A DNA stretch of 64,000 nt, taken from Elusimicrobiota bacterium. Its GTDB lineage: Bacteria > Elusimicrobiota > Elusimicrobia > Elusimicrobiales > UBA9959. Of this stretch, positions 2,926 to 61,478 are shown one piece after another. The DNA lies in assembly GCA_036574205.1 (NCBI GenBank), contig JAINCQ010000028.1, positions 32,001 to 96,000 of the forward strand, in the 5' to 3' direction. Position numbers and translations under genes: made by a program. The notes under the pieces are model-generated. The model was not told the origin of the DNA. It saw nothing but the letters and a program-made list of their open reading frames with translations, and did no database searches. The stretch's first letter is position 1, and each line of letters begins with the position of its first letter.

Positions 2926-4089
2926 ATGGAATTAAGTAAAATAGCTGTTTCAATAAAACCTTCTGCAACTCTTAGATTAAATGAAGTAGCTAACAGGCTT
3001 AAATCTGAAGGAAAAGATATAATACACCTTGGCGGCGGGGAACCAGAGTTTGATATCCCTTTAAAAGCCATAAGCCGCTCAATTGAGAAATTGAACTCTA
3101 AAAGGGTTAATTATACTCCCACCTCAGGAATAAAAAAACTCAAAGAAAAAATTTGCGAATATGCTGGCGCACTTTATGGAATTGAGCCGGATATAGATAA
3201 TATAGTTGTAAGCTCGGGAGCAAAACAGTGTATATATAATTTTTTGATGGCAACTGTTGATCCGGGAGATGAAGTTATAATTCTGGCGCCTTATTGGGTA
3301 AGTTATCCTGAGATGGTTTCAATGGTATATGGAACTCCTGTTATTGTTAAGCCTTCAAATGGACTTATCCCTTCCTGGGAGGATATCAAATCCCATATCA
3401 CATCTAATACAAAAGCGATAATGATAAATAGCCCAAATAATCCGAGCGGGCTTGTTTATCCTGATAAGTTAATGGAAAAAATTTTGACATATTGCTATGA
3501 TAATAATATATACATCCTTCTTGATTCAATATATGATCAGCTGATAATAGATGATATAAAGACTTCTTCGCCATTTTCACATACCGGTGGGATTATAGAT
3601 AATGTAATATTGGTTAACGGAGTTTCTAAATCTTTTGCTATGACTGGTTTTAGAATAGGATATTCAATATCTTCAAAACCTGTTGCAAAAGCTATGACAA
3701 AAATTCAGGCTCAGGTTACATCCTGTCCGAGTGATCTTTCTCAAGTTGCTGCAATAGGTGCTATTGAAGAAGGTAAGGATTTTACTTTAAAGCTTGTTAA
3801 CGATTTGAGAAGGAAAAGAGATATCCTCTGTGCCGGGCTTGATAAAATAAAAAAAGCTGTTTATATAAAACCACAGGCTACTTTTTATAGCTTTGTTGAT
3901 TTTTCGGCATATGAAAAAGATAGCACGAAACTTTCTTCAACCTTAATAGAAAAAGTAGGGGTTGTTACTGTTCCGGGTTGTGAGTTTGGAATGGAGGGGT
4001 ATTTGAGGATAAGCTTTTGCGGAGCAGATAACGATATAAAAAGAGGAGTTGATAGAATACGGGAATTTGTTGATGGAGGAAATTTATGA
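2926..4089 (+). CDS. PLP-dependent class I aminotransferase (aspartate aminotransferase-like)
   Basis: GEPEFD, APYWVSY, NSPNNPSG, SKSFAMTGFRIGY. Confidence 0.9.
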   Translation: MELSKIAVSIKPSATLRLNEVANRLKSEGKDIIHLGGGEPEFDIPLKAISRSIEKLNSKRVNYTPTSGIKKLKEKICEYAGALYGIEPDIDNIVVSSGAKQCIYNFLMATVDPGDEVIILAPYWVSYPEMVSMVYGTPVIVKPSNGLIPSWEDIKSHITSNTKAIMINSPNNPSGLVYPDKLMEKILTYCYDNNIYILLDSIYDQLIIDDIKTSSPFSHTGGIIDNVILVNGVSKSFAMTGFRIGYSISSKPVAKAMTKIQAQVTSCPSDLSQVAAIGAIEEGKDFTLKLVNDLRRKRDILCAGLDKIKKAVYIKPQATFYSFVDFSAYEKDSTKLSSTLIEKVGVVTVPGCEFGMEGYLRISFCGADNDIKRGVDRIREFVDGGNL

Positions 4090-5642
4090 ATGCTATTGGA
4101 TTGAATACAAAAGGGAAAATTTTTGTAAATTTAAATGAGGCTGAGCTTTATGAGCATATAATTAAAAATGATGAGGGGGTTATTTTAAATACCGGGGCAG
4201 TTTGTGTAAATACTGGAAAACATACTGCCAGAAGCGCTCAGGATAAGTTTATAGTCAAAAAAGAGCCATCATCAAATAATATAAACTGGGGTGAAAATAA
4301 TGTTCCAATAGAGGAAGATGTTTTTTTAAATTTGCTGGATAAGATGAAGGATTATCTTTCTAAAAAAGATATATATATTAGAAACTCATATATTGGCTCA
4401 AATCTTGATTTTCGTTTGAAAACAAGAGTTATAACTGAATTGGCATGGCACAGTTTATTTGTCAAAAATCTTTTCTTTGATTATGAGGGAGAGTTGAAGG
4501 ACAGTGATGTTGATTTTACCATAATATGCTTGCCTCGTTTTAAGGCTAATCCTGCGATTGATGGGACAAGAACTGAAACTTTTATAATAATAAGTTTTGA
4601 GCATAAAACAGCTATAATTGGTGGGACAGCATATGCTGGTGAGATTAAGAAAACAGCTTTTAGCGTTATGAACTATCTTCTCCCACTAAAGAATGTTTTC
4701 CCAATGCATTGCTCTGCGAATATATCCGTTAAAAATGAAACAGCAATTTTCTTTGGCCTGTCTGGAACTGGAAAAACGACTCTTTCATCAGATCCTCAAA
4801 GAAGGTTAATAGGGGATGATGAACATGGCTGGGGGGATGATGGGATTTTTAATTTTGAAGCAGGATGTTATGCTAAGGTTATAAATTTAAGTAAAGAGGC
4901 AGAGCCTCAGATATATGCTGCAGTTAATAGATATAAAAGCGTTCTTGAAAATGTAGTATTTGATAGTAATCGTATGCCTGTCTTTGAAGATGGAAGTTTT
5001 ACTGAAAATACAAGATGTGGATATCCCCTTAGTTTTATTGATAATGCAGTCTATGGAGAAAAGTTTCCTCATCCTAAGAATATAATTATGCTTGCATATG
5101 ATGCTTTTGGAGTTTTGCCACCAATAGCAAGATTAAATCACAATCAGGCAATGTATCATTTTATATCGGGATATACCGCCAAGGTTGCAAATACTGAGAT
5201 GGGGATTAAGGAGCCAAAAGCGACTTTTAGCGCCTGCTTTGGAGCTCCTTTTATGAGCCATCATCCAAAGGTTTATGCAAGTATGTTAAGCGAGAAAATG
5301 AAAAAACATAATTCTAACTGCTGGTTGATAAATACCGGGCTCAGTGGAGGTCCTTATGGAGTTGGGAAAAGAATCAGCATAAAACTAACAAGAGAGATTT
5401 TAAACTTCGCGCTTGAATATGAGGAAAACTGGGGAGTAAAATTTGAAAAAGATAAGGTTTTTGGATTTGAAATACCTCAGATTTCAAATATAGATAAAAA
5501 GCTTTTAAATCCATCGCTTTCCTGGAATAATAAAGCAGAATATGATGCTAAATACAGGGAGTTAGCTGAGATGTTTAAGAAAAACTTTCAGAGGTTTAAT
5601 ATAACCGACTCTGATATAACAAAAGGCGGTCCGCTTATATGA
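4086..5642 (+). CDS. pckA: Phosphoenolpyruvate carboxykinase (ATP)
   Basis: YAGEIKK, MHCSAN, FFGLSGTGKTTLS, LIGDDEHGW, NFEAGCYAK, TENTR. Confidence 0.97.
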   Translation: MNAIGLNTKGKIFVNLNEAELYEHIIKNDEGVILNTGAVCVNTGKHTARSAQDKFIVKKEPSSNNINWGENNVPIEEDVFLNLLDKMKDYLSKKDIYIRNSYIGSNLDFRLKTRVITELAWHSLFVKNLFFDYEGELKDSDVDFTIICLPRFKANPAIDGTRTETFIIISFEHKTAIIGGTAYAGEIKKTAFSVMNYLLPLKNVFPMHCSANISVKNETAIFFGLSGTGKTTLSSDPQRRLIGDDEHGWGDDGIFNFEAGCYAKVINLSKEAEPQIYAAVNRYKSVLENVVFDSNRMPVFEDGSFTENTRCGYPLSFIDNAVYGEKFPHPKNIIMLAYDAFGVLPPIARLNHNQAMYHFISGYTAKVANTEMGIKEPKATFSACFGAPFMSHHPKVYASMLSEKMKKHNSNCWLINTGLSGGPYGVGKRISIKLTREILNFALEYEENWGVKFEKDKVFGFEIPQISNIDKKLLNPSLSWNNKAEYDAKYRELAEMFKKNFQRFNITDSDITKGGPLI

Positions 5643-9282: not shown

Positions 9283-10137
9283 ATGAAATTATTATTTTTG
9301 ATTTTCAGCTATCTTGTTTTTGCTGAAGACTATTCCATCCAGCCGTATGCTGTTATAAGCGATACAAAGATGATAAATGAAGGTTCTACTCTTGTTAAAA
9401 GTAAGAAATACGATGTGTTATGGACATTAAATGACTCGGGAGATACTGCAAGAATCTTTGCAATTGATTTATCAGGTAAGGTTATAAAGCCCCAATGGCT
9501 AAAAAAATACAATGGAATTAAAATAGTTGATGCGGCTAATATAGATTGGGAAGCAATGACATATGATAATGAGGGAAATCTTATAATCGCAGATATAGGT
9601 AATAACTATAACTATAGAACCGACCTTGCTTTATATAAAATAGCAGAGCCAAACCCATTTTATGCTGATCAGTCAGGGATAATTTCAAAGTATCTTATAA
9701 GATATCCTGACCAAAAAGGGTTTCCACCATCACCAAATGATATGAATTTTGATGCGGAAGCTATTTTTTATTATAAAGGAAAGCTTTATTTAATAGCCAA
9801 AACTAGATCAACAACCATAGCTACTATTTATAGGTTTGATTCTTTAAAGCCATGGGATATAAATATCCCACAAGTGTCAGCTAAATTTGACTTTAAATCA
9901 ATGGTTACAGATGCCGCAGTATCTGAAGATGAAAAGCACATTGCAGTTTTAACATATAATTATGTATGGCTTTTTGAAACTGAGGATAAAGAAAATCCCT
10001 TTTCAGGTCGTTTTTATAATAAGGAAATATCACTTGGACAATGCGAGGGTATCAGTTTTTTAAACAATAATGAGATTGTTATTTCAAATGAGGAAGGGTA
10101 TTTGTTTAAAATAAAAATCTCAGATTTGAAAAAATAA
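9283..10137 (+). CDS. Secreted protein, probable beta-propeller
   Basis: AGGAGG RBS, signal peptide, blade-like motifs WTLNDSG, DWEAMT, IADIGNN, FDAEAI, VTDAAVS, QCEGISF. Confidence 0.65.
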   Translation: MKLLFLIFSYLVFAEDYSIQPYAVISDTKMINEGSTLVKSKKYDVLWTLNDSGDTARIFAIDLSGKVIKPQWLKKYNGIKIVDAANIDWEAMTYDNEGNLIIADIGNNYNYRTDLALYKIAEPNPFYADQSGIISKYLIRYPDQKGFPPSPNDMNFDAEAIFYYKGKLYLIAKTRSTTIATIYRFDSLKPWDINIPQVSAKFDFKSMVTDAAVSEDEKHIAVLTYNYVWLFETEDKENPFSGRFYNKEISLGQCEGISFLNNNEIVISNEEGYLFKIKISDLKK

Positions 10138-59312: not shown

Positions 59313-59348
59313 TATTATTTGATGTGATGTTTTTGATATTTTGACGCA

Positions 59349-60113
59349 GTTTTGACGCAACAAAGATTTGGTCTTTGATATAATGAATTTACGAACAAAT
59401 TATCCAAATTTTTTGTTTTGACGCAACAAAGATTTGGTCTTTGATATAATGTAACGATAAAAAATCGTTACAAGTTCACTGTTTTGACGCAACAAAGATT
59501 TGGTCTTTGATATAATCCCTTGTGTTCAGATTGCTGACAAGACTCCGTTTTGACGCAACAAAGATTTGGTCTTTGATATAATTCTTAATTAAATTCAAAG
59601 TATAAGTATTATGTTTTGACGCAACAAAGATTTGGTCTTTGATATAATTTTTCACGATTTGCTCCCTATCGAAAATCCGTTTTGACGCAACAAAGATTTG
59701 GTCTTTGATATAATCGCTGGGGTTTAATGTGCAGTATAGAGACGCGTTTTGACGCAACAAAGATTTGGTCTTTGATATAATTTTATCAACATTTTATCAA
59801 CATTATTAACAGTTTTGACGCAACAAAGATTTGGTCTTTGATATAATTGACAACTATAAGAAATACGTAAGTGTTTTTGTTTTGACGCAACAAAGATTTG
59901 GTCTTTGATATAATCAAGACCCATATAAACGTTTTATCCTTCATGTTTTGACGCAACAAAGATTTGGTCTTTGATATAATTCAAAGGTTGTATAACGAAA
60001 TTGTATCAGCAGTTTTGACGCAACAAAGATTTGGTCTTTGATATAATATCAACATTATTAACACAAAATGGAATTATGTTTTGACGCAACAAAGATTTGG
60101 TCTTTGATATAAT
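59349..60113 (+). CRISPR. Type II-C CRISPR array: 12 identical 36-nt repeats GTTTTGACGCAACAAAGATTTGGTCTTTGATATAAT, 11 spacers of 30-31 nt
   Basis: Repeats start at 59349, 59415, 59481, 59547, 59613, 59679, 59746, 59812, 59879, 59945, 60012, 60078; adjacent to cas2; strand inferred from 5' GTTTT and 3' TGnTATAAT. Confidence 0.98.
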
Positions 60114-60133
60114 AGGATTTCATAGTAGTGATT

Positions 60134-60163
60134 TTGACAAAAATTTAGTAAAAATGTTAGAAT
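60134..60163 (+). promoter_or_regulatory. Probable tracrRNA promoter
   Basis: TTGACA-18 bp-TAGAAT with extended -10 TG directly before the anti-repeat. Confidence 0.6.
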
Positions 60164-60164
60164 T

Positions 60165-60231
60165 TCTTTGTTGCGTCTTAACATAAAAAGGAAATTCGGA
60201 CCTCTGCAATGCACGTCACGGATTATCCTTT
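60165..60231 (+). ncRNA. Putative tracrRNA (ends approximate)
   Basis: Anti-repeat TCTTTGTTGCGTC-TT-AAC complementary to repeat 5' GTT-TT-GACGCAACAAAGA, followed by long hairpin AAAGGA...TCCTTT. Confidence 0.75.
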
Positions 60232-60586
60232 ACCAGAATTGAAGTTGCTCATAGCTATTCGGGTTGTTTGCTATATTTCGTTTACTATCTTTTATTTTAT
60301 CTGAAATAGTTACCATCTGTCCCCATTGATTATCTGTTATAAAAAGACATTTTATACTTCCAGTATTTGGATTTATTTTTTTTAAATGAGATAAAAAACT
60401 TTCTTTTTTATCCAGTGTAACAGCAGCCCTTACATACACAGAGTATTGAAGCATCAGATAACCGGCATCTAATAAATCATTTCTAAATTTGGTGGCAAGT
60501 CTTCTTTCTTCTGCTGTATCTGTTGGTAAATCAAACATAACAAAAAGCCAGCCCATTCTATATTCACTCCTTTTATTTTTCTTCAT
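60230..60586 (-). CDS. cas2: CRISPR-associated endonuclease Cas2
   Basis: YRMGWLFVMFDLP, FRNDLL..GY.MLQYSVY, ITDNQW. Confidence 0.95.
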   Translation of the reverse strand: MKKNKRSEYRMGWLFVMFDLPTDTAEERRLATKFRNDLLDAGYLMLQYSVYVRAAVTLDKKESFLSHLKKINPNTGSIKCLFITDNQWGQMVTISDKIKDSKRNIANNPNSYEQLQFW

Positions 60587-61478
60587 AAATATGATCTATT
60601 TTAGGAATGTATAAAGCGCCGGGAAAAGCAGAATAAAAACAGTCTGCGACTGAAGATACATATCTATCTATTATCTTTGGCATTTTTAGTTTTTTACCAT
60701 TATATTTAAAAAGTAATGATGTAAATTTTTCAGCCACTACTTTAATAAATTCCCTTATATCTTTTTTAGGATTGTTTTTCTTAAATTCAAATAAAATTAA
60801 ATCACAAAATGGTCTTAGTGGCTCCATTAAATCATATAACAAAGGCTCTGATTTAAATCTATATTTATGATGAATTCCAAGTAATGGATTAAGCCCATGC
60901 GCTATTATTTCTCTATGGCAAAAAGCTCCCATAACAGCATAGGCATAATTCAGCATTTGATTGACTGGATGTTCTGCACCTTTCTTTTCTCTTTCTTTTG
61001 GTTTTTTATGCCCAAATTTAGAAAAATATTTTTTCCAGTAATGTCTTGCGCAATTTCCTTCATCTATATTATTGCTTTTTAAAATCTCATAAAGATTGTG
61101 AGTCACATTTAATTTATCTAAAACTTTTGCTTGATTTTCAATTTTTGCTTTTATTATTTTTTGCCATAAAGAGGAAGAAAATTTTTCATCTTTTTGTATT
61201 TGTTTTTCAAAAATTTGTGAATGGACTATGCCTGAAAATCCAGAAGTCTTTCCTATTGGTCGATAATTTTCATCGCAATGAATGATTACTGCTTTATTAT
61301 TGATTAAATGATTTAAACTTTCACCGGAAAAGGAAATACCTCTTGCAGCTACAATAACTGCTAAAATATCATTTAATGGTGCTCTTTTTTCTCCTTCTTC
61401 GCTTTTTAATACTAAAAATCCTCTATCTACTGAAAGATAACTATTATGGGTTAAGATATGTATTATATGATACGACAT
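60573..61478 (-). CDS. cas1: CRISPR-associated integrase Cas1 (type II)
   Basis: LWQKIIKAKIENQ, EG..ARHYW, NQMLNYAYAV, GIHH, YDLMEPLRP. Confidence 0.95.
   Translation of the reverse strand: MSYHIIHILTHNSYLSVDRGFLVLKSEEGEKRAPLNDILAVIVAARGISFSGESLNHLINNKAVIIHCDENYRPIGKTSGFSGIVHSQIFEKQIQKDEKFSSSLWQKIIKAKIENQAKVLDKLNVTHNLYEILKSNNIDEGNCARHYWKKYFSKFGHKKPKEREKKGAEHPVNQMLNYAYAVMGAFCHREIIAHGLNPLLGIHHKYRFKSEPLLYDLMEPLRPFCDLILFEFKKNNPKKDIREFIKVVAEKFTSLLFKYNGKKLKMPKIIDRYVSSVADCFYSAFPGALYIPKIDHIYEEK

Follow-up and report, generated by a model that had tools for sequence, protein, structure and literature searches.

CRISPR-Cas systems of type II-C, such as those of Neisseria meningitidis and Flavobacterium columnare, encode only cas9, cas1 and cas2, with a Cas1 of the NMENI type. 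They have 36-nt repeats with a -10-like end, 30-nt spacers and a 3' PAM, and their arrays are transcribed toward the leader and grow at the 3' end. Cas9 systems of Elusimicrobia have been named II-C, according to the available part of one report (PMC5174739). For type II-D (Cas9d/Cas9c2; MG33, MG34, MG102), the accessible portions of two reports (PMC9755519, PMC12669027) describe Cas9 proteins of 600-1050 aa, an adaptation module of cas1, cas2 and cas4 (PMC12669027), and Zn-ribbon and RRxRR motifs (PMC9755519). Spacers that overlap, hotspots at oriC and phage-borne DnaA boxes have all been described before. Plasmid origins that depend on DnaA also exist.

The window (the whole 64,000-nt stretch of DNA that was analysed) ends in a Cas9 locus in which two spacers overlap and together spell out part of their target. 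The features of the locus are:

59349..60113, + strand: CRISPR array in which 12 identical 36-nt repeats alternate with 11 spacers (30-31 nt); crRNA on the + strand
60114..60163, + strand: leader side, with an AGG junction after the last repeat and then a TTGACA-18-TAGAAT promoter-like site for the tracrRNA
60165..60270, + strand: predicted tracrRNA, with the anti-repeat at 60165-60182 followed by hairpins; the 3' end is uncertain
60230..60586, - strand: cas2 (TIGR01573 above cut-off)
60573..61478, - strand: cas1 of the type II/NMENI family (TIGR03639, 183 bits; cut-off 120)
61525..64000, - strand: 3' part of cas9, whose full gene encodes 1034 aa and starts 629 nt past the window end (NF049971, 1156 bits; cut-off 375)

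The genes that identify the locus as type II are present: a Cas9 with conserved RuvC and HNH catalytic residues (D10, E516, H595, N609, N618, H752, D755), cas1, cas2 and a predicted tracrRNA anti-repeat. The order is cas9-cas1-cas2-tracr-array. Neither csn2 nor cas4 was identified in the locus, and the cas4 model PF01930 is absent from the host genome (G000, 95% complete). The tracrRNA promoter-like site matches at 11 of 12 positions. The anti-repeat is predicted to pair with the 5' half of the + strand repeat (duplex of -24.7 kcal/mol), and the predicted tracrRNA had no match in Rfam. In another genome (G114), a tracrRNA-like stretch flanks the array on both sides (L151, ~3440-3512 and 4390-4470).

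Like type II-C, the locus has cas9, cas1 and cas2 only, a Cas1 for which cas1_NMENI is the best fit, and the repeat, spacer, PAM side and direction of growth given above. It differs from known II-C systems in that its Cas9 is 13-19% identical to the solved Cas9s listed among the matches and belongs to a separate clade matched by NF049971. That full-length match to the NCBIfam Cas9d model and the size of the protein, which lies inside the II-D range, are shared with type II-D. However, cas4 is lacking, as are the Zn-ribbon and RRxRR motifs; the protein has no CxxC, Cx4C or RRxRR motif and its sole cysteine pair is the invariant C307/C316. A structure model (pLDDT 88) has Sa, St1 and Nme Cas9 as its nearest folds, and no Cas9d structure is among the listed sequence or fold matches. 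Residues that read the PAM could not be named from the model and fold search, as the solved Cas9s are too distant. Thus the NF049971 label may not equal subtype II-D, given a locus without cas4 and the Zn motifs; the model matches 25 of 401 Elusimicrobiota genomes. The system works like II-C and we do not file it as II-D, an assignment based on locus layout and features, not on phylogeny. The closest named Cas9 homologs are from Elusimicrobiota, and 164 relatives of the clade were found. None turned up in GTDB by a single-protein pattern scan, and none in viral contigs.

The direction of array growth was established from relatives. We examined 100 loci of the clade and called 46 arrays; after we set aside 11 odd calls and took out 3 duplicates, 43 were kept. 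Of these 43 arrays, 11 have a mutated first repeat (a floor, because many left ends are contig ends) and none a mutated last one; AGG follows the last repeat in 27. Thus the array grows at its cas2-proximal end, with spacer 11 as its newest entry and spacer 1 as its oldest. Growth is at the same end in II-C systems, as described in parts of two reports (PMC8092290, PMC12477760). The reverse polarity, in which both protospacer pairs described below would be clean products of priming, is ruled out by the terminal-repeat decay and the leader junction. With the anti-repeat and the tracrRNA promoter on the + strand, the crRNA corresponds to the + strand and the 3' flank of a protospacer is the PAM side. 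Each repeat ends in an extended -10-like TGATATAAT, and these ends may act as promoters by analogy with II-C systems (PMC12477760, in the part available). Ten bases that abut the first repeat (window 59339-59348) are identical to repeat positions 2-11, the form of a truncated terminal repeat at the old end of the array. Spacer 2 includes a perfect inverted repeat with a 5-A loop (window 59450-59472), which would be operator- or hairpin-like on its target.

We identified one metagenome run, X1 (hot-spring contigs), as the sole run found to hold the locus; it may be the source sample of the host genome. The spacers for which X1 is informative, and their common stretch, are:

59385..59414, + strand: spacer 1 (oldest); its first 21 nt are present in the contig that carries protospacer 10 (X1 record 2)
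59782..59811, + strand: spacer 7 (older of the overlapping pair); three DnaA-type boxes at offsets 0, 11 and 20; 0 mismatches in X1 record 3
59796..59811, + strand: 16-nt common stretch in spacer 7, the seed region of crRNA 7
59981..60011, + strand: 31-nt spacer 10; a third flank, AAAGA, comes from its protospacer, found 5 nt upstream of protospacer 1
60048..60077, + strand: spacer 11 (newest); it begins with the 16 nt that overlap spacer 7, and its final 14 nt form the 3' flank of protospacer 7
60048..60063, + strand: 16-nt common stretch in spacer 11

The sequence-only reading of this array had noted that the last 16 nt of spacer 7 are the first 16 nt of spacer 11. Direct comparison and two null models bear this out. 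All other spacer pairs share at most 7 nt. Of 5000 sets of 30-mers drawn from the genome, 4 contained a common stretch of at least 16 nt, and of 5000 shuffled sets none did. Among 778 unique spacers from the 43 arrays of the same Cas9 clade, the spacer 7/11 pair is the only one with an end-to-start overlap of 12 nt or more.

The two protospacers occur together in X1. Record 3 (110 nt) opens with 30 nt of repeat, continues with spacer 7, free of mismatches, and with the 14 nt of spacer 11 that lie beyond the overlap, and then reads TAACA. After this come another double box, with a one-letter difference, and a tail of 10 nt; the repeat does not reappear. We take the Logan contigs to have been built with 31-letter words (k=31). 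In a graph of 31-mers, an overlap of 16 nt is too short to join two spacers, and thus the target DNA exists outside the array; the repeat DNA at the 5' end of the record is most likely a graph join through a common 31-mer. Because spacer 7 continues into the rest of spacer 11 and then into DNA that is not array, both spacers come from one real site. The proposal of two acquisitions from a single locus, and of CAAAATGG as the 3' flank of protospacer 7, therefore holds: the protospacers are contiguous in record 3, with non-repeat sequence beyond, and do not map to different loci. The X1 target matches spacers 7 and 11 exactly, and so is not an escape allele at this site. Its known extent is 80 nt, from one short contig of low depth (4.4; 17 for the host flanks), and one of its reading frames is open.

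Record 2 (135 nt, depth 3.2) carries protospacer 10, AAAGA and the first 21 nt of protospacer 1, in a match with 4 other letters over 38 nt, the places of which are unstated. Thus 4 of the 11 spacers fall in two tight same-strand protospacer pairs (7/11 and 10/1). The records are separate contigs, and no linkage to one molecule was seen. Other targets may go unseen in X1 because single 30-nt matches may be too short to register.

An A-rich PAM, which the sequence-only reading had read from the array alone, gains two further natural flanks. The 3' flanks are CAAAA (spacer 7), TAACA (spacer 11) and AAAGA (spacer 10), so that protospacers 11 and 10 agree with protospacer 7 in having A at positions 2, 3 and 5, jointly NAANA. 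Three random genomic 8-mers agree at three or more of the first 5 positions in 0.7% (0.007) of draws, and at three or more of 8 in 3% (0.03). The three flanks are AT-rich and two come from one site, and the 31-nt spacer 10 may be off register by one base. From these natural flanks, a PAM of at least NAA is quite probable, and the fuller NAANA is a reasonable if less secure candidate. The start of the repeat has no A at the NAANA positions, which would spare the array from its own Cas9. In the available part of PMC9755519, the tested Cas9d/c2 enzymes use NGG, NRC or naR, most of them NGG or NRC, and orthologs with an NRC PAM appear in the part seen of a preprint (bioRxiv 10.64898/2026.08.17.745286). 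The naR PAM of one Cas9d member, MG102-39, is compatible with all three flanks. A literature search, in which few subscription journals were covered, found no PAM for this Cas9 clade.

The target resembles a replication origin, as the sequence-only reading had proposed from three 9-mers that are indeed 1, 1 and 2 mismatches from TTATCCACA. The 80 nt hold six same-strand DnaA-type boxes within 70 nt. In the dnaA flanks of 31 loci of the family (14,370 nt), the commonest box-like 9-mers are TTATCCACA (53), TTATTAACA (25) and TTATCAACA (16); in a coding control of 14,570 nt, none of the three ranks in the top ten. Local alignment was applied to 34 dnaA-dnaN gaps, with one truncated locus dropped and two gaps included that had been picked for likeness to spacer 7. 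It placed 20 of the 34 gaps above the 99th percentile of 23,072 host windows, versus 0 of 34 coding controls. The gap of one congener (G286) outscores every host window, yet chance alone gave a window in a coding gene a score of 64.

The spacing of the boxes also fits the genus. For four boxes at 0/11/20/39, the best site in the host genome is its own dnaA-dnaN gap, with 4 mismatches, and the next best has 7. At 3 mismatches or fewer there is a single match in 301 Elusimicrobia genomes, the dnaA-dnaN gap of the congener G060 (1 mismatch), and a reversed control gave none. The G286 gap fits less well (7). The target spacing ranks 1st of 3375 for joint fit to the host and G060 gaps, although the true odds are less extreme because realistic spacings cluster near 9-11; the spacing test is also post hoc, having been designed after the resemblance was seen. 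In the host contig, GC skew flips at dnaA, although the direction of the genes changes at the same place. As a pattern, then, the target has the origin-type architecture of the host genus, with the dnaA-flanking boxes of the family in the spacing of the genus gap, and it may function as an origin. On visual inspection, the target has two in-frame stops at the place of the last dnaA codons in G000, G060 and G286, and the single unplaced mismatch of record 3 could remove at most one of them. A bias of the clade's spacers toward origins in general was considered and rejected: 3 of 778 spacers carry a box versus 0.9 expected, and two of those 3 are spacers 7 and 11.

Boxes of this type occur elsewhere in these genomes. 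In G060, four 11-nt-phased DnaA-type boxes lie in a class 1 CRISPR leader region that is present in two copies (L270 100-150 and L271), where DnaA could control array expression or integration. Tandem boxes also lie upstream of a similar small gene with no Pfam match in the host (G000:C36:34428-34523) and in G402 (L266/L274); this gene is a candidate for regulation by DnaA. Eight host contig ends (C4, C5, C9, C20, C26, C28, C31 and C38) have a common end sequence with an inverted pair of perfect DnaA boxes, probably the end of an IS.

We searched for the carrier in several collections and did not find it. No spacer targets the host genome, where the best match of any spacer has 6 mismatches. 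Exact matches to spacer 11 are absent from IMG/VR, JGI metagenomes and GTDB, and 400 other genomes of the phylum have no match to it at up to 3 mismatches. The 16-nt core occurs at no fewer than 118 loci in viral contigs; the best among the matches listed has 14 of 28 flank positions mismatched, and all are chance matches. Phages and plasmids gave only weak matches to the whole array (E >= 0.06), while 61 family and 401 phylum genomes gave matches to the repeat or the boxes only. There were no exact matches to the target spacing motif in IMG/VR. The 43 class 1 spacers of the congeners and G325 have at most 10 nt in common with the array. The remaining spacers of the array show no likeness to host or congener genes, and the host has no homolog of an open frame that crosses protospacers 10 and 1. 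Within an array of G325 that has another 36-nt repeat and 34-35 nt spacers, 28 nt at the end of the terminal spacer position are identical to the type II repeat described here (L152 ~9476-9509; G325:C11:67480-67508). This piece may be a spacer from a type II array or a fused remnant.

Viral contigs include 80 stretches with triple TTATYAACA boxes, 42 of them outside long ORFs. None of the 80 fits the target spacing with fewer than 7 mismatches, versus 1 and 4 for congener gaps, and so far this spacing has been seen in chromosomes only. As to the source, the sequence-only reading had named a recurring invader or a chromosome. The chromosome of the host itself is excluded, since its dnaA-dnaN locus differs from the target by at least 8 mismatches in spacer 7 and at least 10 in spacer 11. 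The likeliest carrier, with chances slightly better than even, is a small mobile element that uses DnaA, and a congener chromosome comes next. The mobile element is favoured because two tight pairs need a small target or priming, because neither the other spacers nor the protospacer 10/1 frame resemble host or congener genes, and because the in-frame stops stand where dnaA of the genus ends.

The target could instead be the chromosomal origin of a co-occurring congener, entered by transduction, conjugation or transformation and sampled twice as an acquisition hotspot. We consider this possible, if rather unlikely. The spacing signature, found only in dnaA-dnaN gaps of the genus and absent from viral contigs, fits this source well, as do the 7 mismatches that separate spacer 11 from the G286 gap and the lack of this Cas9 in two congeners in the genomes searched. 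Moreover, self-acquisition is reported to have hotspots at oriC, both in one host of a II-C system (PMC8092290) and in Pyrococcus (PMC5737086), but in the accessible parts of the literature such hotspots are kilobases wide. Two overlapping hits on a 2-Mb chromosome would have a chance of ~4e-4 even if all 11 spacers came from it (an estimate scaled from the null model). The other spacers, unlike congener genes, and the stops at the expected dnaA end also stand against a chromosomal copy.

Less probable still is a phage or plasmid array that binds DnaA with no role in replication start (a sink, an injection-stop or a promoter element), and whose oriC spacing is convergence or a leftover. T5 has TTATCAACA and TTATTAACA boxes away from origins (bioRxiv 10.1101/866236, in part), and its injection-stop region is like the target in having the same variant 9-mers clustered. 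Such arrays are also suggested by the 42 viral stretches outside long ORFs and by the boxes that this family has in its class 1 CRISPR leaders, at IS-like ends of contigs and upstream of a small conserved gene. However, the boxes described here, unlike those on other mobile elements, copy the spacing of the dnaA-dnaN gap of the host genus, from which all 80 viral loci are distant.

It is very improbable that both spacers came from the host population, through an allele of oriC that was older or in the minority. The architecture fits the host's own gap, and the self-acquisition noted above (PMC8092290) makes a precedent, but the host locus and the best match in the genome are too far off, and spacer 11 keeps the spacer 7 seed and flank intact, so that a cell with spacer 7 would face an unmutated lethal target. 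We give equally little credence to record 3 as an assembly or PCR chimera of array spacers, or to an array of mixed lineages, in which case the overlap would be uninformative on target and order: the record begins in repeat DNA and most array spacers are missing from X1 contigs, but 31-letter words (the k that we presume) cannot join spacers over 16 nt, new boxes and a new tail rather than repeat lie beyond the end of spacer 11, and the mean depth is 4.4.

Overall, two acquisitions from one foreign DnaA-box replicon site, next to a NAANA-type PAM, is the explanation we favour, at somewhat better than an even chance. The X1 contig and the polarity of the array show that spacer 7 and, later, spacer 11 were acquired from one site on a foreign replicon in the same community. 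Cas9 would have picked sites with a 3' NAANA-type PAM, or at least NAA, as the three natural flanks suggest. The carrier would most likely be a small element, like a plasmid or a phage, that relies on host DnaA to start its replication or that binds host DnaA, and a small target met repeatedly could have left two tight protospacer pairs among 11 spacers.

The order of acquisition adds a caveat to the sequence-only reading. Spacer 11 covers positions 15-30 of protospacer 7 and beyond, and spans the predicted cut of spacer 7; cuts fall 3-7 nt from the PAM in the part of PMC9755519 available. We infer that the younger spacer derives from DNA that spacer 7 had left uncut, and thus that spacer 7 was not cutting at the time. 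In cleavage-primed acquisition, as described in parts of PMC8092290 and PMC8265633, new spacers are products of cleavage, taken from beside the cut of an older one. The pair 1 and 10 has this geometry (and geometry only), as the newer protospacer 10 adjoins the oldest protospacer 1, ~30 nt from the predicted cut. The pair 7 and 11 lacks it: a product of cleavage could not extend across the cut, as protospacer 11 does. Cutting by spacer 7 might, speculatively, have been blocked by bound DnaA or by an anti-CRISPR; alternatively, the target could have resided in cells or congeners without spacer 7, or the array could mix lineages. In its boldest form, the favoured explanation would describe an origin parasite, an Elusimicrobiales mobile element with a near-consensus oriC box array of the host genus, freed from dnaA and shielded from Cas9 by DnaA, so that the same 44 bp are re-acquired while protospacer and PAM stay unmutated. 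We regard this version as doubtful. Overlapping spacers that rebuild a stretch of an invader are also the basis of spacer tiling (PMC6858448), in which, in the part of that report available, deep population spacer sets are used for virus assembly; in the present case a single pair from one array supplies a PAM flank, and this flank was checked in DNA from the sample.

Taken together, the overlap is real and well supported, the system that holds it is ordinary and II-C-like, the PAM estimate is useful and the target is unusual. In a literature search that covered few subscription journals, we found no report of spacers against a host-type copy of oriC. The flanks provide a PAM that can be tested, NAANA or at least NAA, for a Cas9 of 1034 aa in whose clade we found 164 relatives. 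For the editing of AT-rich DNA, Cas9s of fairly small size that have A-rich PAMs are useful. For the biology of these bacteria, the finding points to an unassembled replicon with the host lineage's own origin architecture. If it is a congener chromosome, the array would be a rare record of CRISPR attack on the origin of a relative. If it is a mobile element, it would be a case of natural origin capture, with which one could test directly whether DNA that carries bound initiator evades Cas9.
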